From the NCBI GenBank assembly GCA_947589375.1, contig CANQAO010000001.1, positions 1 through 37,051 of the forward strand: a DNA stretch of 37,051 bases, written 5' to 3'. Of the stretch, positions 1,035 through 34,720 are shown piece after piece (position 1 is the stretch's first letter; the number at the start of each line of letters is the position of its first letter). This stretch comes from an uncultured Bacilli bacterium. GTDB lineage: Bacteria > Bacillota_I > Bacilli_A > RF39 > UBA660. The position numbers and the translations under genes were made by a program. Below the pieces are notes generated by a model. It saw nothing but the letters and a program-made list of their open reading frames with translations, was not told the origin of the DNA and searched no databases.

Positions 1035-2702
1035 TTATTTATCCTTATTAATTTTAAATGTTGCTTGATAACTATTTTGTAAATCTATTTCATCAACATC
1101 AATATAATATCCCATTTTTTCAATTTCATTGGCGCAATTTCTAATAATTTTAATAACTTCAGCAAAATTAGAACTTGCATCTATGGTCTGTGGAGCTTTA
1201 GTTTCTAAAATATCAGCTGGAGGAATTGGCACTGAAGTTGGAGCTGGCTGAGCAATCGTTTGAGGTTCATTAACCAATGGCGCTGATTGCACTAATTCAT
1301 TATATAAAGATTGATTGTTTGCCGTCGGACCCATAGCCGGAGATTCTGGTTGTAAAGATGGTTCCACTGGCTTTTCAGGTAAATCAGAATTTATAGCTCT
1401 TTGAACAGCCGCAGCAATAGCGGCATTATTATTTACTATCGGTTTTTCTTCTTTAACAAAAGCGGTTGGTGCTGGTTCAGAAATATTTAAAGATGGTTCC
1501 ACTAGCGGAACTTGTTGCGAAGTTGACATAGTAGTCTGAGCTTCTATAGGTGTTGAAGTTTCCACTGGTGTATCATTCATGGTTAAAGATTCTGGTTTCG
1601 GAGTTTCAGCTGGTTGCTGTAAATCAGTAGGTGTAAAATTAAACATTGAATCAAAACTCGTAGTGTTTGGTTGTGCAGGAGCTGGGGCTGGAGTTGGTGC
1701 AGGATTTTCAGCCGCAATTCCAGCAAAATTTACAAATTTATTTTGTTCATCATTTACTAAAGGAATATCGGGATTATTGGCAGGTTTTGGAGTTTCAGTT
1801 ACTTCTGGGGCTGGCTGAGGATTATTTATTCCTTCTAAAACACTAGGTGAATCTGGTGTTTGTTTCATTAATCCCGTAATATCTTTTTCTTCAGATGGAA
1901 CATTAATATCTTGGGCTTCTTGCATTATTTTATCTATATCCATATTTTTTTCCTCCCTTTTTATTCTTTCGTTTATTTCTTGTGGTGGATTAACTTTAAT
2001 AATATCATGACTAGCAACTGCTACCGCTCTTCGAGGTTTTCGTGGGAGTGGTGTAGCAAATAATTCTTCGATTTCCTTATCATTAGTTGGTGCGGGAGCT
2101 TCTAAAAGCTCTTTGATGGCATCGTCAGTTCTTTTTACGGTTAATCTTTCATTAATAATGCGATTTAGCATTTGTACTTGATCTTGGTTATTGTGAATTC
2201 TAAGTAGTGAACGAGCATGTCTTTCGGAAATTTTTCCGTTTAATAAAGCATATTGAACTTCGTCATCTAAGTTTAACAATCTTATTTTATTAGCTATTGT
2301 TGATTGGGATTTTCCAAGTTTTTTTGCAAGTTCTTCTTGTGTAATATAACCCATATCTAAAATTCTTTTATATGATACAGCTTCTTCAATCGGGGTTAGA
2401 TTTTGTCTTTGAACATTTTCCAGTAAAGCAATTTCTTCACTTTCTTTATCGGTTAGATTTATCACGATAGTGGGAATTACACTTTTACCAGCTAATCTAC
2501 TAGCTTTAAATCTTCTTTCACCGGCAATAATTTCATATTTATTACCAATTTGGCGCACAATAATCGGTTCAATGACACCATATTTACGAATAGATTCAGC
2601 TAATTCATTTAATTTATTATCATCAAAATGAATGCGTGGTTGAAATCTATTTGGCAAAATATCATTCATATTTAAGTAAGTAAAATTGCTGCCATTTTCC
2701 AT
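1035..2702 (-). CDS. ParB/Noc-family nucleoid-binding protein (Noc-like) with a long disordered insertion
   Basis: 555 aa. The N-terminal ParB/Srx domain has PNRFQPR and GERRFKAS (arginine patch, aa 61-68). The HTH region reads LGKSQSTIANKIRLLNL...ISERHARSLL (aa 121-167). Aa ~201-510 are low-complexity P/T/E/Q/A/N-rich. Aa 511-555 (VIKIIRNCANEIEKMGYYIDVDEIDLQNSYQATFKI) resemble the Noc/ParB C-terminal dimerisation domain. It lies directly downstream of rsmG, where noc sits in Bacillus. Confidence 0.9.
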   Translation of the reverse strand: MENGSNFTYLNMNDILPNRFQPRIHFDDNKLNELAESIRKYGVIEPIIVRQIGNKYEIIAGERRFKASRLAGKSVIPTIVINLTDKESEEIALLENVQRQNLTPIEEAVSYKRILDMGYITQEELAKKLGKSQSTIANKIRLLNLDDEVQYALLNGKISERHARSLLRIHNNQDQVQMLNRIINERLTVKRTDDAIKELLEAPAPTNDKEIEELFATPLPRKPRRAVAVASHDIIKVNPPQEINERIKREEKNMDIDKIMQEAQDINVPSEEKDITGLMKQTPDSPSVLEGINNPQPAPEVTETPKPANNPDIPLVNDEQNKFVNFAGIAAENPAPTPAPAPAQPNTTSFDSMFNFTPTDLQQPAETPKPESLTMNDTPVETSTPIEAQTTMSTSQQVPLVEPSLNISEPAPTAFVKEEKPIVNNNAAIAAAVQRAINSDLPEKPVEPSLQPESPAMGPTANNQSLYNELVQSAPLVNEPQTIAQPAPTSVPIPPADILETKAPQTIDASSNFAEVIKIIRNCANEIEKMGYYIDVDEIDLQNSYQATFKINKDK

Positions 2703-3507: not shown

Positions 3508-5359
3508 GATAATCCCTCTTTAAATAAATCATCAATATTGAAATATCCGCTGGATTGACACCACTAATCCGCAAAGCTTGACCTAGCGAAGTAGGCCTTA
3601 TTTCTTTTAATTTTTGTTTGGCTTCACTAGCTAAATTATGCATTGCATCGTAATCGATATCACTAGGTATTTTTTTATCTTCAAGTTCGTTCATTTTCAT
3701 AGCTTCTTTTTTAGCTTTTTGAATATAGCCGGCATATTTTATATCAATATTTACTTGTTCTAAAACATCATCATTATAATTATTAGCTAAAAACTTAGTT
3801 AAAGATTCAATGGTAATTTCAGGCCTTTTTAATAAGTCGTATAAAGTAATTCCATCTTTTATTTCTTTAGTGTTTAATTGTTTTAAAAAGTCATTATCTT
3901 TTGGCGTTAATTTTTTAGTTTGTAATTCTTTGGTTAAAACTTTTATACTTTCTTTTTTCTTTAAAAAATTATGATATCTAGTTTCATCAATAAGACCGAC
4001 TTTATAACCATATTCTCTTAATCTTAAATCAGCGTTATCGTGTCTTAATAACAAACGATATTCGGCGCGTGAAGTTAAAAGACGATATGGATCTCTTATT
4101 CCTTTGGTAACTAAATCATCAATTAATACGCCGATATAAGCTTCGTTTCTTTTTAAAATCAAAGGCTTTTTTCCTTCTAATTTTAAAGCAGCATTAATGC
4201 CAGCAATTAATCCTTGACAAGCGGCTTCTTCATAGCCACTAGTACCATTAATTTGACCAGCTGAATATAAATTTTCAATTATTTTAGTTTCTAAAGATTG
4301 TTTTAATTGGGTTGGATAAATAGAATCATATTCAATCGCATAAGCATATTTTAAAATTTTAGCTTTTTCTAATCCTGGTAAGCTATGAACCATTTCTTCT
4401 TGGACATCATAAGGCATAGATGTGGAAAAACCTTGCAGATATATGTCATCATAATAGATACTTTCGGGTTCCAAAAATAATTGATGCTTTTCTTTATCGG
4501 CAAAACGGACGACTTTATCTTCGATTGAAGGGCAGTATCTAGGTCCTACTCCCTTTATATCATTTAAACCCCCATACATACTAGATTTTTTTAAGTTTTT
4601 ATTTATAATTTCATGAGTTTTGGCGGTTGTATAGATTAAATGACAAGGTATTTGGTTATCAATATCATATTTTGGCTTTAAATCAAAACTAAATGTATGA
4701 TATACATTATCACCATTTTCCACTTTCATTTTAGTAAAATCGATAGAATCTTTAGCAATTCTTGGTGGGGTACCGGTTTTTAATCTTTTTAAAATAAAAC
4801 CTAATTCTTCTAGGTTTTCACTTAAATAATTCGATGGTTTTTCCCCATGTGGTCCTTCTCTTCGCCTCGTACTACCAACTAAAATATCGGCTTTCATATA
4901 AGTACCTGTAGTTAAGATAACAGCCTTAGCTTTTATTTGGCGATCATCTTCTAAAATAACCCCTTCACATTTACCACTCTTGACAATTAACTTTTTTACT
5001 AAAGCTTCTAAAATATCTAAATTTGCCGTTTTGTTTAAAGTTTTAAGCATTTCTTTGGGATAAGTAATTTTATCAGCTTGGGCTCTTAAAGCTCTTACCG
5101 CTGGTCCTTTAGCACTATTTAACATTTTTATTTGTAATAGACTTTTATCGGCATTTTTTCCCATTTCACCGCCTAAGGCATCGATTTCTCTGACGACGAT
5201 TCCTTTCGCACTCCCACCTATTGATGGATTACAAGGCATATCGGCAATATTATTGATATTTCCCGTAACCAGTAAAGTCTTATGGCCTTTTCGAGCGGAA
5301 GCTAAAGCGGCTTCACAGCCAGCATGGCCACCACCAACGACGATTATTTCGTAATTCAT
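3500..5359 (-). CDS. mnmG: tRNA uridine 5-carboxymethylaminomethyl modification enzyme MnmG (GidA)
   Basis: FAD motif VVGGGHAGCEAA and full-length similarity to GidA. The start is placed at the ATG giving MNYEIIVVGGG (AGGTGG RBS upstream), not the longer track ORF that starts at 5383. Confidence 0.96.
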   Translation of the reverse strand: MNYEIIVVGGGHAGCEAALASARKGHKTLLVTGNINNIADMPCNPSIGGSAKGIVVREIDALGGEMGKNADKSLLQIKMLNSAKGPAVRALRAQADKITYPKEMLKTLNKTANLDILEALVKKLIVKSGKCEGVILEDDRQIKAKAVILTTGTYMKADILVGSTRRREGPHGEKPSNYLSENLEELGFILKRLKTGTPPRIAKDSIDFTKMKVENGDNVYHTFSFDLKPKYDIDNQIPCHLIYTTAKTHEIINKNLKKSSMYGGLNDIKGVGPRYCPSIEDKVVRFADKEKHQLFLEPESIYYDDIYLQGFSTSMPYDVQEEMVHSLPGLEKAKILKYAYAIEYDSIYPTQLKQSLETKIIENLYSAGQINGTSGYEEAACQGLIAGINAALKLEGKKPLILKRNEAYIGVLIDDLVTKGIRDPYRLLTSRAEYRLLLRHDNADLRLREYGYKVGLIDETRYHNFLKKKESIKVLTKELQTKKLTPKDNDFLKQLNTKEIKDGITLYDLLKRPEITIESLTKFLANNYNDDVLEQVNIDIKYAGYIQKAKKEAMKMNELEDKKIPSDIDYDAMHNLASEAKQKLKEIRPTSLGQALRISGVNPADISILMIYLKRDYHG

Positions 5360-5367
5360 TATACCAC

Positions 5368-6717
5368 CTATTTTCCCACGCAAAAGCGCTTAAATATTTG
5401 ATCAATTAGTTCTTCTTCATAAGTTTCACCGATGATAAAACCTAATAAATTCCAAATGTTTTTTAAATCGATTTCAATCATATCTAAGGTAAAACCTTGG
5501 TTTAAGCCTTGTTTTACCTCTTTGATAGCTTCCCTTACTTTATTTAATATGGATAGAGATCGGGCACTACCTAAATAACTCATATCTTCAGTTTCGATTT
5601 CTTCTAAATTAAATAATTCTTTTATTTTATTAGTAATTCCATCAATGTTGATATTATTCAATGCACTTACATAGACTTTGTTTTGTAAATTTTCATCATC
5701 GATTTTTTTCGCTAAATCACATTTGTTGATTATCGTTATATATTTTTTATCTTTTATTTGATTAATTATCTTTTTATCATCTTCCGTTAATTTTTCATTA
5801 TAATTTAGGACTAATAAAACTAGATCAGCATCATTTACTAATTTTAAACTTTTTTCCACACCAAGACTTTCGACTAAATCTTTCGTTTTTCTAATGCCAG
5901 CGGTATCGATAAGGTTTAAAATAATATTATCTAATATTAATGTCGCTTCGACACTATCTCTTGTTGTCCCTTGAATTTCCGTGACAATGGCTTTATCTTC
6001 ACCGATTAAATTATTAAGTAAACTACTTTTACCAACATTAGGTCTTCCGACAATTACGGTTTTAATTCCATTTTTTAAAAGTTCGCCATTTTTACTTTCA
6101 AGACATATTTTTTTGATTTTAGTTTCTAAATTATCCATACTAGAACTTATTTTAGATACTGTCATTTCTTCAATATCTTCATATTCAGGATAGTTTAAAT
6201 TAACTTCGATATTAGCTAAAATCGCGGCTAAATCATTTCTTAAATCTTTGATTAAATTAGAGGCTTTGCCATTTATTTGATTGATGGCCATTTGGGAAGC
6301 TTTTTCTGTTTTCGCATTTATTAAATCCATAATTCCTTCAGCTTCGGTTAAATCGATTCTTCCGTTTAAAAAAGCTCGTTTAGAAAATTCACCAGGTTCA
6401 GCTAAACGACAACCATTTGAAAGGAGTATTTCCAAAACTTTATTAGTAGCGACAATACCCCCATGAGTATTTATTTCCACAACATCTTCTTTAGTAAAAG
6501 TTTTAGGCGCCAGCATCTTAGATACTAATACCTCATCGATTTTTTCATCATTATTGGTAATATATCCATAATGAATTGTATGTGATGGAGCGGTTTTAAA
6601 CTTTTTATTACTAAAAATCTTACTAACAATTTCTATAGCTTCACTTCCACTAACTCTTATTATCGAAATAGCCCCGACTCCTTGCGCGGTAGATATAGCG
6701 GCAATAGTATCGTTCAT
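5368..6717 (-). CDS. mnmE: tRNA modification GTPase MnmE (TrmE)
   Basis: 449 aa with the G-domain motifs GRPNVGKSS, DTAGIR and NKCD, and the C-terminal FCVGK motif. Confidence 0.96.
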   Translation of the reverse strand: MNDTIAAISTAQGVGAISIIRVSGSEAIEIVSKIFSNKKFKTAPSHTIHYGYITNNDEKIDEVLVSKMLAPKTFTKEDVVEINTHGGIVATNKVLEILLSNGCRLAEPGEFSKRAFLNGRIDLTEAEGIMDLINAKTEKASQMAINQINGKASNLIKDLRNDLAAILANIEVNLNYPEYEDIEEMTVSKISSSMDNLETKIKKICLESKNGELLKNGIKTVIVGRPNVGKSSLLNNLIGEDKAIVTEIQGTTRDSVEATLILDNIILNLIDTAGIRKTKDLVESLGVEKSLKLVNDADLVLLVLNYNEKLTEDDKKIINQIKDKKYITIINKCDLAKKIDDENLQNKVYVSALNNINIDGITNKIKELFNLEEIETEDMSYLGSARSLSILNKVREAIKEVKQGLNQGFTLDMIEIDLKNIWNLLGFIIGETYEEELIDQIFKRFCVGK

Positions 6718-8950: not shown

Positions 8951-9126
8951 TTTTCCACAGTTTAATTTTTATTGATTTGTAAAAGCTAAATAATCTTTTA
9001 AACATATGTGGATAAGTAAAAATATATGTCATTTGAGGAAAATTTTTTTATTCACATTTTCTGTGGATAACTATTTTTAGACTTTTATTTAAAAAGGTTT
9101 AAAAATGTGGATAAAAAAGTGGATAA
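8951..9126. promoter_or_regulatory. oriC part 1: DnaA-box cluster upstream of dnaA
   Basis: Three exact TTATCCACA boxes lie on the reverse strand (tgtggataa at 9007-9015, 9062-9070, 9106-9114). One-mismatch boxes are at 8951-8959 (ttttccaca), 9048-9056 (ttattcaca) and 9118-9126 (agtggataa). Confidence 0.85.
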
Positions 9127-10563: not shown

Positions 10564-10670
10564 TTATCCACCTTGCCCTTTCTTAAAAAAAATCAGTTAT
10601 TTAAAGAAAAATTAACACTTTTCCACATAATCCACACTAATAATAAAAATATTAATTAATAATAAAAAAG
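10564..10670. promoter_or_regulatory. oriC part 2: DnaA boxes plus an AT-rich candidate unwinding region between dnaA and dnaN
   Basis: One-mismatch boxes are ttatccacc (10564-10572), ttttccaca (10619-10627) and taatccaca (10628-10636). They are followed immediately by ctaataataaaaatattaattaataataaaaaa, which is almost pure A/T and starts with TAA repeats. Confidence 0.65.
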
Positions 10671-11879: not shown

Positions 11880-11907
11880 GGCATAATCTATGAGGGGGGA
11901 ATTAGCG

Positions 11908-12357
11908 ATGATAGATTATGAAATAACAGGAAGCACTTGTGCTTTAATTGGAATTAATAATAAAGAAACCGAGGTGATTGAAAAAGGTAAACGCTTTATT
12001 ATTCCTAAAAAAACCAAAGATGTTTTAAATGAAAGTTGTGAATTTTATGGAAGTACTTTAGCTGGCCGAATTAAAGGTAGTCAAGTTCAATTAGGAATGA
12101 AATATAAATTACCAATAATTGTTGAAAGTTCTAGGGAATTAGTTTTTTTTCCAACGCTTTCACCACGATTAGAAGATTGTAGCTGGATATCCTTAAAAAA
12201 CATCAAAAGTTATGAAGAAATTGCCTATGGTGTTAATATTGAATTTTGTGATGGAGAAAGCATAAGTCTGCCAATTTCTCTAGAATCTTTGGAAAATCAA
12301 ATCTTTCGAGCGACGAAATTGATGCTTATCGCGCGTAGTCGTCGTGCGAAACTATAA
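11908..12357 (+). CDS. comK: ComK-family competence transcription factor homolog
   Basis: About 149 aa. It aligns with recalled B. subtilis ComK blocks: SCEFYGSTLAGR (cf. SCRFFGSSYAGR), PIIVES...VFFPTLSP...C.WIS (cf. PPIMV...LFPTLS...CGWIS) and LPISLESLENQ (cf. LPISYNSFENQ). The start is at the ATG 8 nt after GAGGGGGG. Confidence 0.8.
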   Translation: MIDYEITGSTCALIGINNKETEVIEKGKRFIIPKKTKDVLNESCEFYGSTLAGRIKGSQVQLGMKYKLPIIVESSRELVFFPTLSPRLEDCSWISLKNIKSYEEIAYGVNIEFCDGESISLPISLESLENQIFRATKLMLIARSRRAKL

Positions 12358-13611: not shown

Positions 13612-15536
13612 TGGCAGAAAATAAAGAACATTATAATGAATCTGATATTCAAGTATTAGAAGGCTTAGAAGCGGTAAGAAAAAGACCGGGAATGTATATT
13701 GGAACGACCGATGTTAAAGGCTTACATCATTTGGTATGGGAAATTGTCGATAATGCTATCGATGAAGCTTTAGCGGGATATTGTGATAATATTGAAATTA
13801 TTATTAATAAAGATAATTCAATTACCGTTAAAGATAATGGTCGTGGTATCCCAGTGGGAATTCATCCAAAAACTGGTTTATCAACGGTGGAAACTGTTTA
13901 TACGGTTTTACACGCTGGTGGTAAATTTGGTGGCGGGGGCTATAAAGTTTCTGGGGGACTTCATGGAGTTGGGGCTTCAGTTGTTAACGCCCTATCTAAA
14001 GAAGTTACGGTTACCGTTTACAAAGATGGTAAAATTCATGAAGCAAAATTCGCGGATGGTGGAAAAACTATTCAAAAATTAACTATTATTGGGGAATGTG
14101 AACCAGAAAGAACGGGAACTGTAGTTACTTTTAAACCAGATCCGGAAATATTCGATACTGATATCTATGATTATAATACTTTAATGATTCGTACAAGGGA
14201 ACTTGCCTTTTTAAATAAAGGGTTAAGTTTAACTTTAAGAGATGATCGTGATGACGAAGATACAACCGGAGAAACTTTCCACTATGAAGGGGGAATTAGC
14301 GAGTACGTTAAGTATTTAAATAAAAATAAAACGCCAATTGGGGAAGAAATTATTCACTTAGAGGGTGAAGAAGACGATATTATTTTTGAAGTAGCATTAC
14401 AATATAATTCTGGATACAATGAAAGTATTTATTCCTTTGTAAATAATATCAATACTCATGATGGAGGAACGCATGAAGAAGGAGTTAAAAGAGCTTTAAC
14501 CCGAATTTTAAATAATTATGCACGTAAAGCTAATATTTTAAAAGAAAAAGATGATTCATTAAGTGGTGAAGATGTTAAAGAAGGTTTAACAATGATTATT
14601 TCTTGTAAACATCCTAATCCGCAATTTGAAGGTCAAACTAAGGGGCGTCTTGGAAATTCTGAAGTTCGAAAGTTAGCCGATAAAGTTTTTGCCGAAGGAT
14701 TTGAAAGATATTTAATGGAACATCCTGATGAAGCGAAAATCATTATCGATAAAAATATGACGGCGGCGCGGGCAAGGATTGCTGCTAAAAGAGCACGTGA
14801 ACTTACCAGAAGAAAAAGTGATTTAGATGTTGTTAATTTTGGTGGAAAGTTAGTTGATTGTAAAGATAAAGATCCTATTAATAGTGAAATCTTTATCGTC
14901 GAGGGGGATTCAGCCGGTGGTTCAGCTATCAAAGGAAGAAACTCGATGACCCAAGCTATTTTACCACTTCGCGGAAAAATTCTTAATGTCGAAAAAGCCC
15001 GTATTGATAAAGCATTATCAAATGAAGAAATAAGAACAATTATAACTGCTTTTGGGACAGGAATTGGTCAAGAATTCGATTTAAATAAACTAAGATATCA
15101 TAAAATAATTATCATGACCGATGCCGATGTCGATGGCGCCCATATTCGGGTATTGTTACTCACATTATTTTATCGCTTCTTTAGACCCATTGTTGAAGCA
15201 GGTTATGTTTATGCCGCACAACCACCACTTTTCTGTATTAAACATGGTAAAACGATTAAATATGTTTTAAATGAAGAGGAAAGAGATGCTTATTTAGCTA
15301 CTTTAAATCCTAATACTAAATACGATATTTTACGTATGAAAGGTTTAGGTGAAATGGATCCTGAAGAATTAAATGAAACGACTATGGATATTAATACTAG
15401 AGTATTAAGAAAGATAACGGTTGATGACGCTATTGCTGCCGATGAAGCCTTCTCTATGCTTATGGGCGAAGAAGTTGAACCAAGAAGAAAATTTATAGAA
15501 GAAAATGCGCCTTATGCGCAAAATCTAGATGTTTAG
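13611..15536 (+). CDS. gyrB: DNA gyrase subunit B
   Basis: 641 aa with the GHKL ATPase motifs (DNGRGIP, GLHGVG), the Toprim EGDSAGG and PLRGKILNV. It ends ...NLDV at a TAG stop. Confidence 0.98.
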
Positions 15537-15546
15537 GAGGTGCCGT

Positions 15547-18003
15547 ATGGATGATAAGATAAAAGATAAATTAGAAGAAAATAATATAGTTGAAGAAATA
15601 AAGTCATCATTTATTGATTATTCTTTAAGTGTTATCGTTTCACGTGCCCTTCCAGATTTAAGAGATGGATTAAAACCTGTTCATCGTCGTATTTTATATT
15701 CAATGTATGAATCTGGTTATACACCTGACAAACCTCATAAGAAAAGTGCGCGTATTGTCGGAGATGTAATGGGTAAATATCACCCTCATGGTGATTCAAG
15801 TATTTATGATGCTATGGTCAGAATGGCTCAAGATTTTAACTATCGTCATATGCTTGTCGATGGCCATGGAAATTTTGGTAATATCGAAGGTTATAGTGCC
15901 GCGGCTATGCGTTACACTGAATCAAGATTATCGAAAATATCATTGGAACTTTTACGTGATATTAATAGAGATACAGTTGATTTTGTTCCAAATTTTGATG
16001 AATCAGAAAAAGAACCAGCTGTGTTACCATCAAGATTTCCAAATATTTTAGTAAATGGAACAATGGGAATTGCTGTCGGTATGGCAACCAATATTCCCCC
16101 TCATAACTTAGGGGAAGTAATCGATGGATGTGTTGCTTATATCGATAATCCAGATATTGATGTTTTAGGTTTAATGGAACATATTAAAGGTCCTGATTTT
16201 CCAACAGGCGCCATTATTCTAGGTAATAGTGGGATTAAAAAAGCCTATGAAACTGGTAAAGGAACGATTACGATCCGTAGTCGCGCGCGAATTGAAGAAA
16301 ATAATGGTAAGCAACAGATTATTATTGATGAAGTACCATATGGTATAAATACATCAGAACTTAAAAATAAAGTTGCTGATTTAGTTCATAGTAAAGTCAT
16401 CGATGGTATTTCAGATTATCATACGGATTTAAAAGATGGTATTAAGATTACGATTACGCTTAAAAAAGAAGCAAATGCGCAGGTAGTTCTTAATAATTTA
16501 TATAAGCACACCCAATTTCAAACTAATTATGGTATAACATTATTAATGCTTGATAATGGAGTCCCAAAAACTTTAGGTTTAAAAGATATTATTTCTAAAT
16601 ATATTGATTATCAAAAGGAAATAATTATTAGAAGAACTAAATTTGATTTAGATAAAGCTGAAAAAAGAGTTCATATTTTAGAAGGTTTGAAAATAGCTTT
16701 AGATAATATCGATGCAGTTATTAAACTAATTAGAGGTTCGAAAACTGATGATGAAGCTAGAGCCGGTTTAATGAATAACTTTGCATTATCAGAAATTCAG
16801 GCTAATGCCATTTTAGAAATGAAGTTAAGAAGATTAACTGGTTTAGAAAGAGATAAAATTGAAGCTGAATTAAAAGAATTATTAGCTAAAATCGAAGAAC
16901 TTAAAGCTATTTTAGCTAGCGAAGCTAAAGTTCTAGCTATTATTAAAGAAGAATTATTAGAAATAAAAGAAAGATATAGTGATGATCGTCGTACAGATAT
17001 CGATATGACGGCTATTGACTATATTGAAGATGAATCTTTAATTCCCGTTGAAGATATCGTAGTTACTTTAACGAATAAAGGTTATGTTAAACGTATGACG
17101 AGTGAAACTTATAAAACTCAAAATCGCGGAGGTGTTGGAATTAAAGGTATGACAACCAATGAAGATGATTTTGTTGAGAATTTAATTTCGATGACGACCC
17201 ATGATTATATAATGTTCTTTACGAATAAAGGTAAAACATATCGGGTTAAAGGGTATGAAATTCCACAATTCAGTAGACAATCTAAAGGTTTACCAATTAT
17301 TAATTTATTGCCTTTAGATAAAGATGAAGTAGTTAAAGCAATGCTAAAGGTTAGTAAAGATGAAGAAAATAAATATATTGTATTTTGTACACAAAGAGGT
17401 TTAGTTAAGAGAACAGCTTTAACAGAATTTGAAAGTATAAGATCTAATGGTAAGATTGCTATTACGCTTAAAGAAGATGATGAATTAATTTCCGTTAAGA
17501 AAACAACCGGTGAAAATGAAATTATTATTGCTTCTTCAAATGGTCGCATGATTAGATTTGAAGAAAAAGAAATTAGAGTAATGGGAAGAACAGCATCTGG
17601 TGTTAAAGGTATTGATTTAGGTGATGGTATCTGTGTAGGTTGTGAAATAGCTGAACCTGAACAAGAAATTTTAGTTGTTACTGAAAAAGGTTATGGAAAA
17701 CGTACTAAAACTACTGAATATCGTATGACACATAGAGGTAGTAAGGGAGTTAAAGCTTTAAATATTACTGAAAAAAATGGTAACATTGTCGCCTTTAAAT
17801 TAGTTAATGGAGACGAAGATTTAATGATTATCACAGATAGTGGCATGATTATTAGAATGGAAGTAGCTCAAGTTTCCACAACAGGAAGAGTAGCTCAAGG
17901 AGTTAGGTTAATTAATTTGAAAGATGAACAAAAAGTAGGAAATGTTGCCTTAATTAACAAAGAAGAAATAGCTGAAGCTGATGATTCAGAAAAGGAAGAA
18001 TAA
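15547..18003 (+). CDS. gyrA: DNA gyrase subunit A
   Basis: About 818 aa with the active-site region AAMRYTE, the QRDR-like [10 protein letters not shown] and an acidic C-terminal tail. The start is at the ATG (MDDKIKD) 7 nt after AGGAGG rather than the upstream track start. Confidence 0.98.
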
Positions 18004-18033
18004 AATCTTCTTTTTCTTATAGTTAAAAACTAA

Positions 18034-18049
18034 TGTTTCACGTGAAACG
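18034..18049. promoter_or_regulatory. parS-1 (ParB-binding centromere-like palindrome), 15/16
   Basis: tgtttcacgtgaaacG compared with the consensus TGTTTCACGTGAAACA. Confidence 0.8.
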
Positions 18050-18076
18050 TTGGTAGAAAGATAGAAAAAGAAATAT

Positions 18077-18092
18077 AGTTTCACGTGAAACA
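18077..18092. promoter_or_regulatory. parS-2, 15/16
   Basis: Agtttcacgtgaaaca; its centre is 43 bp from parS-1. Confidence 0.8.
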
Positions 18093-18250
18093 TAGGATAT
18101 ATTTACTTTTTAAATAAATTAAAACTTAAATTAAAAAAGATATAAACCAAGAAAAATAAGGGCTAATTCATTTATAAGTATTAAAATTAACTTTTGAAAA
18201 AATATTCAAAATTAGTTTAAAGAAATAATATTTTATTATCAAACTTTAAA

Positions 18251-18266
18251 TGTTTCACGTGAAACA
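18251..18266. promoter_or_regulatory. parS-3, 16/16
   Basis: tgtttcacgtgaaaca, extending to the 18-bp perfect palindrome atgtttcacgtgaaacat. Confidence 0.85.
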
Positions 18267-18291
18267 TCATTTGCAGAAACAAAAAAACTAA

Positions 18292-18307
18292 TGTTTCACG
18301 TGAAACA
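18292..18307. promoter_or_regulatory. parS-4, 16/16
   Basis: tgtttcacgtgaaaca; its centre is 41 bp from parS-3. Confidence 0.85.
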
Positions 18308-18477
18308 TAGGATATATTTACTTTTTAAATAAATTAAAACTTAAATTAAAAAAGATATAAGCCAAGAAAAATAAGGGCTAATTCATTTATAAGTATTAAA
18401 ATTAACTTTTGAAAAAATATTCAAAATTAGTTTAAAGAAATAATATTTTATTAATTATTTTATTATCAAACTTTAAA

Positions 18478-18493
18478 TGTTTCACGTGAAACA
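18478..18493. promoter_or_regulatory. parS-5, 16/16
   Basis: tgtttcacgtgaaaca (18-bp palindrome). Confidence 0.85.
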
Positions 18494-18518
18494 TCATTTA
18501 CAGAAATAAAAAAACTAA

Positions 18519-18534
18519 TGTTTCACGTGAAACA
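18519..18534. promoter_or_regulatory. parS-6, 16/16
   Basis: tgtttcacgtgaaaca; its centre is 41 bp from parS-5. Confidence 0.85.
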
Positions 18535-18561
18535 TTGGTAGAAAGACAGAAAAAGAAATAT

Positions 18562-18577
18562 AGTTTCACGTGAAACA
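18562..18577. promoter_or_regulatory. parS-7, 15/16
   Basis: Agtttcacgtgaaaca; its centre is 43 bp from parS-6. Confidence 0.8.
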
Positions 18578-18748
18578 TAGGATATATTTACTTTTTAAAT
18601 AAATTAAAAAGTAAATTAAAAAAGATATAAACCAAGAAAAATAAGGGCTAATTCATTTATAAGTATTAAAATTAACTTTAAAAAAAACATTCAGAATTAG
18701 TTTAAAGAAATAATATTTTATTAATTATTTTAATTATCAAACTTTAAA

Positions 18749-18764
18749 TGTTTCACGTGAAACA
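18749..18764. promoter_or_regulatory. parS-8, 16/16
   Basis: tgtttcacgtgaaaca (18-bp palindrome). Confidence 0.85.
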
Positions 18765-18810
18765 TATAATATATTTGCTTTTTTATAATAAATAAGCTAT
18801 TATTATTAAT

Positions 18811-18883
18811 GGCACAACATTTATATCCGAAACAGGTCAGGATCGGAAGATAGCAGCCTTAAAGATCTCTGAATGTGTGTGCC
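18811..18883 (+). ncRNA. ffs: Small (4.5S-type) signal recognition particle RNA
   Basis: ggcacaaca... pairs with ...tgtgtgtgcc to form a long hairpin. The apical domain IV, cAGGTCAGGAtCGGAAGAtAGCAGCC, matches the universal SRP RNA motif CAGGUCAGGUCCGGAAGGAAGCAGCC with a GGAA tetraloop. It is followed by ttttatt. Confidence 0.85.
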
Positions 18884-18901
18884 TTTTATTATGGTGATAG
18901 T

Positions 18902-19306
18902 ATGAATAAATATATGAAATTAGCTTTTAAAGAAGCGGAAAAAGCTTTAAAAACAGATGATGTTCCCGTAGGAGCAGTAATAGTTGAAAAAGGAAAAATA
19001 TTGGCAAAAGCTCATAATACCAAAGAAAAAAAACAAATGGTAACTAGGCATGCCGAAATAAATGCTATAGAAAAAGCTTGTCAAAAAAAACATTGTTGGT
19101 ATTTAAATGATTGTGTTATGTATATAACATTAGAGCCTTGTAAAATGTGTATGGGCGCAATCGAACAAGCGCGAATAAAAAAAATAATATATGCCACCAA
19201 ACGTGAAAAAAAAGTAAATAATATTTTTCCACAAATTACACAAGGTGAAGGTGAAAACGAAGCGCGAAATTTATTAAAATCCTTTTTTGAAAATAAGAGA
19301 AAATAG
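18902..19306 (+). CDS. tadA: tRNA-specific adenosine deaminase TadA
   Basis: CDA fold motifs HAE (RHAEINAIE) and PCxxC (LEPCKMCMGAI). The start is placed at MNKYMKLAFKEA because the longer track ORF (18875) would overlap ffs. Confidence 0.9.
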   Translation: MNKYMKLAFKEAEKALKTDDVPVGAVIVEKGKILAKAHNTKEKKQMVTRHAEINAIEKACQKKHCWYLNDCVMYITLEPCKMCMGAIEQARIKKIIYATKREKKVNNIFPQITQGEGENEARNLLKSFFENKRK

Positions 19307-32418: not shown

Positions 32419-32440
32419 AAATAAATATGCTATAATTAGG

Positions 32441-32656
32441 CATAAGCGATGAAGGAAAGAAAAATAGGTGACTTTATAGAGAGTTTATGGTTGGTGGAAA
32501 TAAACAAGGTGACTATTCCGAATGGTTCTGGAGCTTCTTAGCCGAATAATTAAGCTAAGGCGTATATCTGCGTTAAAGATTTAAGGTAAGCAATAGCTTA
32601 TAAATTAAGGTGGTACCACGTAATTTACGTCCTTATGTTTAAGGATGTTTTTTTTT
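32441..32656 (+). promoter_or_regulatory. T-box leader (tRNA-sensing transcription attenuator), probable Met specifier
   Basis: An extended -10 TGcTATAAT (32428-32436) lies upstream. Stem I has a GA/K-turn (gcgATGAagg ... ctgGAGCtt), an AGAGAG box (32478-32483) and a distal-loop motif ggttggtggaaa. The specifier-loop region is ccgaATGgttctggagc (AUG at 32522-32524). The T-box sequence aaggtggtaccacg is at 32607-32620. The terminator stem cgtcctta/taaggatg (32628-32647) is followed by T9. Confidence 0.85.
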
Positions 32657-32669
32657 GGAGATGATTAAC

Positions 32670-33158
32670 ATGCGCAAATTTGAAAAAATCAGTTTATCAC
32701 AGTTTATCAAGGACACAGGATTAACTGAAGCAGAATATCATAAATATAGATTACCTAAAAGAAGCACTAAACATAGTGCGGGTTATGATTTTGCAACCTT
32801 AACTGATTTTACTTTAAAACCAAAAGAAATTAAATTAATTCCAACCGGAATAAAAGCTAATATGAATGAAAATGAGGTATTAATGCTTTATATTCGCAGT
32901 AGTTTAGGGTTTAAATATAATTTACGGATGTGTAATCAAGTAGGTATTATCGATAAAGATTATTATAATAACAAAGACAATGAAGGTCATATTTTTGTAA
33001 AATTACAAAATGAAGGCGATACAATCAAAGAATTTAAATAGGGGGAAAGCATCGTTCAAGGAATTTTTACGAAATTTTTAGTAGTTGATGATGAAAAAGA
33101 AATTACCACGCTTAGGAAAGGTGGAATTGGTAGTACAAATGAGGAGGAAGAAAAATGA
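32670..33158 (+). pseudogene. dut: dUTP diphosphatase (trimeric dUTPase family) interrupted by one in-frame TAG at 33039-33041
   Basis: The N-terminal part (MRKFEKIS...SAGYDF...IPTG...RSSLG...VGIIDKDYYNNKDNEGHIF...) ends at TAG. The same frame then continues for 38 codons, GESIVQGIFTKFLVVDDEKEITTLRKGGIGSTNEEEEK. These carry the conserved QGIF and C-terminal R.GG.GST motifs and end at a TGA overlapping the metG ATG (ATGA, 33155-33158). Confidence 0.8.
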
Positions 33159-34720
33159 AAGATACTTTTTATATTACAACATCAATATTTTATGCATCAG
33201 CCAAACCCCATATTGGCAATTCATATGAGGGCGTTTTAGCGGATGCGATTGCGCGTTATAAAAGACTTACTGGTTATGATGTAAGATTTCATACCGGTAC
33301 TGATGAACATGGGGAAAAAGTCCAAAATAATGCTTTAAAAAACGGCAAAGATCCCCAAGAATATGTGGATGAAATAGCTTTAGAAGTTAAAAGATTATTA
33401 GATATTTTAAACGTTAGTTATGATAAATTTGTAAGAACAACCGATGCGAATCATAAAAAAATTGTCGGTAAAATATTTGAAAAATTATATGAAAATGGCG
33501 ATATATATAAAGGCACATATGAAGGCCTTTACTGCACACCTTGTGAATCTTTTTTTACAGAATCACAGTTAGTAGATGGTAAATGTCCTGACTGCGGAAG
33601 AGAAGTAAAAAAAGCCAGTGAAGAAGCTTACTTTTTAAAACTTAGTAAATATAATGAATGGTTAAAAGATTATATTTTAAACCATCCTAACTTTATTGAA
33701 CCTGAAAGTCGTAAAAATGAAATTATGAATAATTTTATTATTCCGGGAGTTCAAGATTTATGTGTTACTAGAAGCTCATTTGATTGGGGCATTAAAGTAC
33801 CATTTGATCAAAAACATGTAACTTATGTGTGGTTAGATGCCTTAGCTAACTATATTACTTTTTTAGGGTATGATCCCGATAATGAAAGTGATGATTTTAA
33901 TAAATATTGGCCAGCTGATATTCATATTATTGGCAAAGATATTTTAAGATTTCATACAATTTATTGGCCAGTAATGTTAAAAGCTTTAGGTCTTGCAATG
34001 CCGAAAAAAATCTTTGGTCATCCTTGGGTTTTAGCGGCTGATAGTGATAAGATGAGTAAATCTAAAGGTAATGTTTTATATGCTGATAAACTTGTAAATT
34101 TATTTGGTGTTGATGCTGTTAGATATTATTTATTACATGAAATCCCTTATGGACATGATGGTTATATTAGTTATGAATTATTAATTGAAAGAATTAATTC
34201 AGATTTAGCTAATATTTTAGGTAATTTAGTTAATAGAACAATTACTATGGCTCATAAATATTTTGATGGTATTATTTATAAACCAGAAAAATTGGAAGAA
34301 GCTGATTACGAATTAATCGAAATGGCCAAAGGTTTAAAGAATAAAGTCGAAGAAAAGATGAACAATTTAAAAATTGCGGAAGCGATTGATGAAGTTTTTG
34401 AACTATATCGTCGTAGTAATAAATATATCGATGAGACTACACCTTGGATTTTAGCTAAAGATGAAAGTCAAAAAGAAAGACTAAAAACGGTTATTTATAA
34501 TTTGTTAGAAGCCATTAGAACGGCTACGGTTTTCTTACAAGCCTTTTTACCAGATACCGCCGATAAAATTTTTGAGCAGTTAAATACGCAAAATCGACAA
34601 ATTGATTCTGTAGATAATTTTGATGGTATGGATGATGGTATTAAGTTAAATCAGCCAGAAGTATTGTTTGCGAGAATTGATAAAGATAAGAAATTAGAAG
34701 AAATCGAAAATGCCGAATAA
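33155..34720 (+). CDS. metG: Methionine--tRNA ligase (short form without the C-terminal tRNA-binding domain)
   Basis: 521 aa with the class I motifs HIGN (HIGH-type) and KMSKS, and the Zn knuckle CxxC...CPDC. Confidence 0.96.
   Translation: MKDTFYITTSIFYASAKPHIGNSYEGVLADAIARYKRLTGYDVRFHTGTDEHGEKVQNNALKNGKDPQEYVDEIALEVKRLLDILNVSYDKFVRTTDANHKKIVGKIFEKLYENGDIYKGTYEGLYCTPCESFFTESQLVDGKCPDCGREVKKASEEAYFLKLSKYNEWLKDYILNHPNFIEPESRKNEIMNNFIIPGVQDLCVTRSSFDWGIKVPFDQKHVTYVWLDALANYITFLGYDPDNESDDFNKYWPADIHIIGKDILRFHTIYWPVMLKALGLAMPKKIFGHPWVLAADSDKMSKSKGNVLYADKLVNLFGVDAVRYYLLHEIPYGHDGYISYELLIERINSDLANILGNLVNRTITMAHKYFDGIIYKPEKLEEADYELIEMAKGLKNKVEEKMNNLKIAEAIDEVFELYRRSNKYIDETTPWILAKDESQKERLKTVIYNLLEAIRTATVFLQAFLPDTADKIFEQLNTQNRQIDSVDNFDGMDDGIKLNQPEVLFARIDKDKKLEEIENAE

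Follow-up and report, generated by a model that had tools for sequence, protein, structure and literature searches.

An array of eight canonical parS sites downstream of gyrA as the predicted chromosomal centromere of an uncultured lineage of gut Bacilli

The parS array and the origin region around it

The stretch of DNA that we analysed, called the window below, is the complete 37,051-bp contig CANQAO010000001.1 of a metagenome-assembled genome (MAG) from an uncultured, low-GC (about 29%) bacterium of Bacilli type, and the subject of the present work is an array of parS sites, the palindromes bound by the partition protein ParB, which occupies the spacer between gyrA and the gene of the small signal recognition particle (SRP) RNA. 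After the stop codon of gyrA (15529-18003, plus strand) come a weak hairpin and a T-run, which immediately precede the first parS, and the SRP RNA gene (ffs/scr; 18801-18899, plus strand; RF00169, 64 bits) comes directly after the array. Searching the window for TGTTTCACGTGAAACA with up to two mismatches returned exactly eight matches, all within the array, with no further site elsewhere in the 37,051 bp and no match at all in 100 dinucleotide-preserving shuffles of the window. The original prediction, made by a model from the letters and their open reading frames (ORFs), had counted eight sites in 731 bp (18034-18764), five of them matching at 16/16 and three at 15/16, and this count proved exact. 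All eight fit the 16-bp chromosomal parS palindrome TGTTNCACGTGAAACA with at most one mismatch, and each of the five perfect copies can be read, as had also been claimed, to extend to the 18-bp palindrome ATGTTTCACGTGAAACAT. The first two sites, parS-1 (18034-18049; TGTTTCACGTGAAACG, 15/16) and parS-2 (18077-18092; AGTTTCACGTGAAACA, 15/16), are modules a and b of the first repeat unit; they are followed by the perfect parS-3 (18251-18266), by parS-4 (18292-18307, perfect), with which unit 2 starts, by parS-5 (18478-18493, perfect), by parS-6 (18519-18534, perfect) at the start of unit 3, by parS-7 (18562-18577; again AGTTTCACGTGAAACA, 15/16) and finally by the perfect parS-8 (18749-18764), which lies inside or next to a predicted promoter of the SRP RNA gene.

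The eight sites are carried by three tandem units (18029-18790, plus strand) of about 260, 229 and 257 bp, whose boundaries in the alignment are 18029-18288, 18287-18515 and 18514-18790, and whose common layout is parS a, 27 bp, parS b, an AT spacer of 158-171 bp, parS c and 25 bp. The units are not copies of one another in every detail: unit 2 is without the 43-bp module a, units 2 and 3 have an insertion of 12-13 bp, and the units carry private substitutions and indels, unit 3 having several private single-nucleotide differences. Identity among the long AT spacers (146-158 bp) is 96-99%. With Tandem Repeats Finder, a 215-bp period is detected over 18078-18535 and one of 43 bp over 18476-18578, and the centre-to-centre distances between successive parS are 43, 174, 41, 186, 41, 43 and 187 bp. 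The whole interval from the gyrA stop to the SRP RNA (18004-18800) has a GC content of 18.3%, or 14.5% once the parS sites are removed, and contains no open frame longer than 38 codons, which agrees with its earlier description as a non-coding, AT-rich tandem array. The array grew through recent tandem duplication of a three-parS unit. A functional role for the 158-bp AT spacer was considered and rejected, since the spacer contains no ORF, has no match in Rfam and is without a counterpart among the relatives. A search with it recovered its own copies in the window; the sole other match (50 bp at 78% identity, E 5.5e-4, at 4628-4677 of the related contig L122) is at chance level and distant from any array.

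The gene order of the window is that of a classical Firmicute origin region, with an rsmB-like gene, a ParB-family gene, rsmG, mnmG, mnmE, jag, yidC and rnpA on the minus strand and dnaA, dnaN, comK, recF, gyrB, gyrA, the array, the small SRP RNA, tadA, dnaX, ybaB, recR, holB and more housekeeping genes on the plus strand. DnaA boxes cluster upstream of dnaA (8951-9126; three perfect boxes and three with one mismatch) and again between dnaA and dnaN (10564-10636), so that the array lies 7.4-9.1 kb from a bipartite oriC, close to the origin as originally proposed; the GC skew changes sign near 9 kb of the window. In the gene content of the window, no mobile-element, integrase, replication or partition genes were seen near the array, and the nearest ParB-family gene is about 15 kb away, across oriC.

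Some further features of this region deserve mention in their own right. The SRP RNA match overlaps the longest tadA ORF, which begins with a GTG at 18875; the true start of tadA is therefore probably the ATG at 18903, which would explain why the 143-residue TadA product is absent from records. A comK homologue (PF06338, 8e-36) is found at 11890-12357 on the plus strand between dnaN and recF, a placement kept in all the relatives that were fetched (L122, L123, L124, L127 and L130), and the slot it fills is that of the small gene once called yaaA in Bacillus subtilis. Finally, a T-box leader (32440-32637, plus strand, 123 bits) precedes a short dUTPase-like ORF (32655-33041) and metS (33155-34720).

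Recurrence among relatives and comparison with other parS layouts

A first sample of relatives was fetched through GyrA homologues with 85-95% GyrA identity. The relative with 93% identity (L123) has at least seven parS, repeated in tandem every 38-39 bp from a point 42 bp downstream of gyrA up to the end of the contig, which falls inside the array; the one with 95% identity (L122) has two parS before its contig end; and three relatives at 85-86% identity have seven, four and four parS in the gyrA-tadA spacer, the pattern in each of these three species being identical in two to three independent assemblies. The second sample came from a metagenome scan with the GyrA C-terminus, which gave 80 loci in which parS were counted at up to one mismatch. 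Among the 43 loci with at least 58% identity over the GyrA C-terminus, 36 carry 1-13 parS within 1.5 kb downstream of gyrA and none carries a parS in the 4 kb upstream of it; most of the seven loci without parS have very little downstream sequence, as the contig ends there. Loci with 55% GyrA identity or less have any parS in only 2 of 37 cases. The SRP RNA gene follows gyrA in 16/16 loci tested. The array is thus no isolated case within its clade, 36 of the 43 related loci carrying parS after gyrA.

What changes from lineage to lineage is the repeat. Its period is 26 bp in L266, 34 bp in L273, 38-39 bp in L123, 63 bp in L286 and about 230-260 bp in the window; L123, L266 and L273 have regular arrays with one parS per repeat, the window has three units with two to three sites each, and in L124 seven parS are separated by unrelated unique sequence. 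Centre-to-centre spacing ranges from 26 to about 190 bp across lineages, with as little as 10 bp between neighbouring palindromes, so that no particular repeat period is required. The palindrome itself is constant. In a logo of 182 clade parS, G2 and A7, the bases that separate parS from the Noc-binding site (NBS), are invariant, and variation is confined to position 5 (T/C, known to be degenerate), its mirror position 12 and the outermost bases. Because the palindrome is kept and the spacers and periods turn over, we conclude that selection acts on the palindrome and its location and not on the repeat unit; since relatives have amplified other units at the same locus, copy number is evolutionarily labile. 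The placement within the locus is also flexible, as the distance of parS from ffs varies among relatives, with sites before and after this gene and also between tadA and dnaX. In L273, the last codons of gyrA contain a perfect parS (4885-4905) and a separate eight-copy parS array with a 34-bp period lies between tadA and dnaX (5620-5880), which suggests that the centromere can spread to neighbouring spacers.

In this clade, contigs very often break off at a distance of 30-500 bp from the gyrA stop, in some cases in the middle of a parS array (L122, L123, L125, L129, L131 and many of L254-L298); parS arrays are a recurrent breakpoint of short-read assembly at the origin. The end of L122 (12290-12357) is of another kind: after its two parS, the contig ends in G+C-rich inverted repeats (CTTCCCGCACGAAGTGTGGGAAG and CCACGCATTATATGCGTGG), which are unlike the AT-rich surroundings and may belong to a different repeat element.

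Beyond the clade, one genome per species was scanned for two perfect parS lying 10-40 bp apart, and at least 120 such loci were found in Actinomycetota, Bacillota, Pseudomonadota, Bacteroidota, Chloroflexota and other phyla. Among the matches listed, five loci hold 5-8 parS in 800 bp at up to two mismatches, and three do so at up to one mismatch. In a member of the Lachnospiraceae (L085), eight parS with a period of 46-47 bp lie directly upstream of parA-parB-DUF4446-serS, and the ParB of this locus has the parS-type residues R-S-K-G at the four specificity positions discussed below; the locus is a positive control, namely a dense parS array beside parA-parB with an R..G ParB. The arrays of three other loci (L105, L096 and L017) have 5-7 parS each, the seven of L105, from the Clostridia, standing just after rsmG. 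These Clostridia arrays share with that of the window the same palindrome, the tandem repeats, 5-8 sites in less than 0.8 kb and a chromosomal housekeeping context, and they differ from it in position, at least in the two contexts that were checked (upstream of parA-parB in L085 and after rsmG in L105, as against after gyrA in the window). Dense arrays, described in the original prediction as typical of plasmid and phage centromeres, occur on chromosomes too, with 5-8 sites in less than 0.8 kb beside parA-parB or rsmG in Clostridia. Two further observations may be added. Perfect parS pairs 10-40 bp apart are frequent in IMG/VR contigs classed as viral (L134-L253), with up to five sites per 800 bp among the matches listed; and an 8-kb stretch labelled as a Nitrosopumilus sp. 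MAG (L062, CAXQPB010000082.1), with 63% GC and four perfect bacterial parS within 300 bp, is probably a mis-binned bacterial contig, since both its composition and its parS are out of place for Nitrosopumilus.

An iterated plasmid centromere, sopC of the F plasmid, consists of twelve 43-bp repeats of a plasmid-specific sequence bound by SopB and adjoins sopAB. Its repeats stand head to tail, each with one inverted-repeat site for a ParB-family protein; the array is likewise built of tandem repeats that carry such sites, two to three per unit, and differs from sopC in having the universal parS of chromosomes at a chromosomal locus; that the 43-bp period of sopC matches the 41-43-bp spacing of neighbouring sites in the window is a coincidence. 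As for chromosomes, parS sites usually occur as one or a few closely spaced copies per genome and are clustered within 5-40 kb in most genomes, the scattered layout of Bacillus being confined to a few lineages (PMC8357415), and several parS in one 5-kb window have been described in gut Firmicutes (PMC10197239). Accordingly, the contrast with the scattered sites of B. subtilis, on which the claim of an unusual locus had leaned, overstated the oddity of the array, because dense clusters are widespread and clustering is the published norm. With the clusters of Pseudomonas aeruginosa (parS1-4), Caulobacter crescentus, Corynebacterium glutamicum (10 sites, about 35 kb) and Myxococcus xanthus (22 sites), the array shares the 16-bp palindrome, the presence of several copies and the proximity to oriC, and those clusters are presumed likewise to nucleate one ParB complex and to load SMC. 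The array differs from them in measuring 0.73 kb against 5-40 kb, in lying within one non-coding spacer, in being tandem-duplicated and not beside parAB, and in its fast turnover among related species. Among the ParA-less Bacilli, Streptococcus pneumoniae has four parS near oriC and an orphan parB, the role of parS there lying mainly in SMC recruitment and origin organisation (PMC7022226); it is, like the organism of the window, a low-GC member of the Bacilli with no parA visible near the origin, but its four parS are separate loci, whereas the window has a tandem array and no parB gene was seen in the contig. The array is therefore a real, unusually dense and compact case of the known origin-proximal parS clusters. 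It is still unusual in its sub-kilobase compaction, its origin by tandem duplication, its position after gyrA and away from parAB, and its rapid turnover.

The ParB-family gene of the window and the binder of the array

The only ParB-family gene of the window (1035-2702, minus strand) encodes a protein of 555 residues and occupies the position of noc, directly downstream of rsmG. The closest relatives of solved structure are Noc (2e-61 and 2e-51) and then Spo0J (about 1e-47), with identities of 52% and 48% to Noc proteins and of 43-45% to Spo0J. At the four positions that determine specificity according to Jalal et al. 2020 (173, 179, 184 and 201; PMC7383237), the protein has Q-K-N-R, to be compared with Q-K-K-R in Noc and R-x-x-G in ParB, so that it shares with Noc both the gene position after rsmG and three of the four specificity residues. 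Deep mutational scanning found R173 to be invariable in parS-specific variants and showed that Q173 and R201 together with a single permissive lysine suffice for specificity towards NBS, the bases preferred at positions 1 and 6 being A and C, respectively (PMC7383237). Q-K-N-R, with one permissive lysine present, fits this published rule for Noc, and under it the protein is predicted not to bind parS. That the ParB-family gene of the window is of Noc type, and not a predicted parS binder, was overlooked in the original prediction.

The protein is not a standard Noc either, since it lacks the N-terminal extension and falls below the curated cut-off for the family. Only 16 residues precede the PNRFQPR motif and no in-frame start codon lies upstream, so that the N-terminal membrane-targeting extension is absent; about 23 N-terminal residues of B. 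subtilis Noc are missing, and the score against the NCBIfam model for Noc (TIGR04285) is 266 bits, below the cut-off of 315 bits. A low-complexity linker of about 300 residues, rich in P, T and Q, leads to a conserved C-terminal segment of about 45 residues; the last 66 residues have no match in Pfam, and a reading of the sequences suggests a resemblance of this segment to the C-terminal domain of Noc. Among the 120 closest homologues, 114 share Q-K-N-R, the long P/T/Q-rich linker (for a total length of 490-690 residues) and the conserved C-terminal segment. The protein is thus a representative of a large family of that size range in gut metagenomes.

A partner for the array was sought in the same sequences. 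No second ParB or ParA was found in the open frames at the contig ends, or by tblastn with canonical ParB and ParA against the clade loci, and no ParB with the R173...G201 residues exists in the 37-kb contig or the origin-region loci of the clade, where the only homologue is the Q-K-N-R protein. Nor does soj-spo0J follow its gene, either in the window or in the 10 kb beyond it in one relative. As regards the sites, a search for the NBS palindrome TATTTCCCGGGAAATA, allowing up to two mismatches, found no match either in the window or in some 130 kb of sequence from the clade; the window has two matches with three mismatches, a number not above chance. The sites of the array differ from the NBS of B. 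subtilis and Staphylococcus aureus in having G and A at the two discriminating positions, as do 182/182 clade sites.

It is tempting to hypothesise from these results that the Noc-derived protein, as the only ParB-family protein of the clade, took over centromere binding and itself binds the parS arrays. It is alone in the window and in the 10 kb beyond in the relative, its family is kept throughout the array-bearing clade, it is shorter than Noc at the N-terminus and scores below the Noc cut-off, and no NBS-like site has been found for it to bind in the clade sequence. According to such a scenario, which we hold to be unlikely, the clade would have lost its canonical ParB, and a Q-K-N-R paralogue with a disordered linker of about 300 residues and no membrane-targeting N-terminus would have been re-purposed for fast-evolving parS satellites. 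A Noc-derived centromere binder of this kind would violate the published rule by which R173 is needed to recognise parS. The hypothesis is contradicted by precisely this rule, under which Q173, R201 and a lysine confer NBS specificity (PMC7383237), and by the sites themselves, since all 182 have G/A where NBS would have A/C. It must also be borne in mind that the absence of NBS, or of parB, in the sequence examined says little, because that sequence covers the origin region only. Since the ParB-family protein of the window is of Noc type and is not expected to bind parS, the true ParB would have to be encoded elsewhere, and it is most economical to suppose that a canonical ParB, possibly an orphan, is encoded outside the contig. 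S. aureus offers a precedent, noc having stayed beside rsmG and an orphan parB being located elsewhere.

The array as a predicted chromosomal centromere

The array is very probably the chromosomal centromere of this lineage, that is, a canonical parS cluster at which a canonical ParB is predicted to load. The original prediction had spoken of a dedicated, amplified chromosomal centromere, and of this the canonical, non-coding, origin-proximal and tandem-amplified character of the locus has stood; its exceptionality has not, since clustering is usual (PMC8357415). Several points weigh against the array as a centromere. Neither the window nor the clade loci show a gene for a canonical ParB, for ParA or for SMC, and the sole ParB-family protein has a glutamine where arginine is reported to be invariable for parS binding (PMC7383237). 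The parS count covers the 37-kb origin contig, and the copy number is that of a single short-read MAG contig, at a locus where related contigs often break. Binding of ParB, its spreading dependent on cytidine triphosphate (CTP) and the recruitment of SMC at the array are predictions from the DNA.

The palindromes could alternatively serve as operators, through which ParB or another regulator would control transcription of SRP RNA-tadA-dnaX, partition not being their main role. A predicted promoter (TTTAAA-16-TATAAT, 18743-18770) lies just upstream of the SRP RNA, with parS-8 between its -35 and -10 elements, and a second TATAAT is found at 18784-18789; in P. aeruginosa, ParB bound at intergenic parS does repress neighbouring genes (PMC7022226). 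The overlap between parS-8 and the promoter is, however, weak evidence, because the promoter scan gave 13 matches against 8.4 expected in such AT-rich DNA. One site would moreover suffice for an operator, which leaves the 8-13 copies and their variable placement unexplained, and the sites of relatives lie at variable distances on both sides of ffs, between tadA and dnaX and once in the 3' end of gyrA. We therefore regard an operator as the main role of the sites as quite improbable, a local regulatory side-effect being compatible with a centromere.

Still another explanation, to which we give very little credence, is that of an assembly artefact or a wrong copy number, a single parS unit having been mis-expanded by the assembler. 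The window is a single short-read MAG contig, and the locus is not covered by a second, independent assembly of this species: exact-protein look-ups with the TadA and GyrA of the window and with a database entry for GyrA returned no contig, the look-up with RecR gave a metagenome contig of 1.5 kb that stops short of the array, and a metagenome scan for a 29-mer specific to the repeat found no match. That contigs of close relatives end 30-500 bp after gyrA further indicates that the locus is hard to assemble. Yet the units differ by the 43-bp module missing in unit 2, by the insertion in units 2 and 3 and by the substitutions of unit 3, and since an assembler cannot invent private differences between units, at least three distinct units exist. 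Furthermore, multi-parS arrays at this locus have come out of independent assemblies of dozens of relatives, and for three species two to three assemblies agree exactly. If the copy number is wrong, collapse into too few copies is more likely than expansion. Lastly, an integrated plasmid or phage as the owner of the centromere, an explanation in line with the tandem iterated centromeres typical of plasmids and the close canonical parS pairs common in IMG/VR viral contigs, can practically be dismissed, because the flanks are core synteny (dnaA-dnaN-comK-recF-gyrB-gyrA and ffs-tadA-dnaX-ybaB-recR-holB), there are no integrase, replication or partition genes of such an element, and the locus is orthologous across the clade.

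For a chromosomal centromere of this kind, established ParB biology suggests how it would work. ParB dimers would bind each palindrome, bind CTP and close into clamps, which would slide onto the flanking DNA and so free parS for the next dimer. Eight independent entry gates in 0.73 kb would raise the flux of ParB clamps beside oriC, and the resulting dense partition complex would mark the origin and recruit SMC-ScpAB, several gates increasing the robustness of the partition and SMC-loading complex. As all sites stand in one sub-kilobase block, the array would act as a single, point-like loading site, and independent loading gates are favoured over a phased nucleoprotein structure because no fixed spacing exists across lineages. 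Helical phasing as the reason for the 41-43-bp spacing was considered separately and rejected, as relatives use 26, 34, 38-39, 46 and 63 bp. In vitro, the condensation force scaled with the number of parS (7, 13 and 26 copies), one to four copies giving no condensation in that assay (PMC8299390), and dispersed parS promote collisions of SMC that tight clustering avoids (PMC8357415).

The identity of the binder is the only element that could lift the locus beyond a dense but ordinary parS cluster. On the practical side, the arrays can be recognised as a reason why contigs break off at the origin in MAGs of this group. They are also natural counterparts of the synthetic 7x-39x parS substrates of single-molecule work, and could be used to study the effect of parS dosage on ParB loading and SMC recruitment. 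For the biology of the group itself, the array adds a natural extreme to the known layouts of chromosomal centromeres, with as many as 13 canonical parS packed into about 1 kb at a locus (gyrA-ffs-tadA) that is fixed across a widespread clade of uncultured gut Bacilli, the repeat units being replaced between species much like eukaryotic centromeric satellites.

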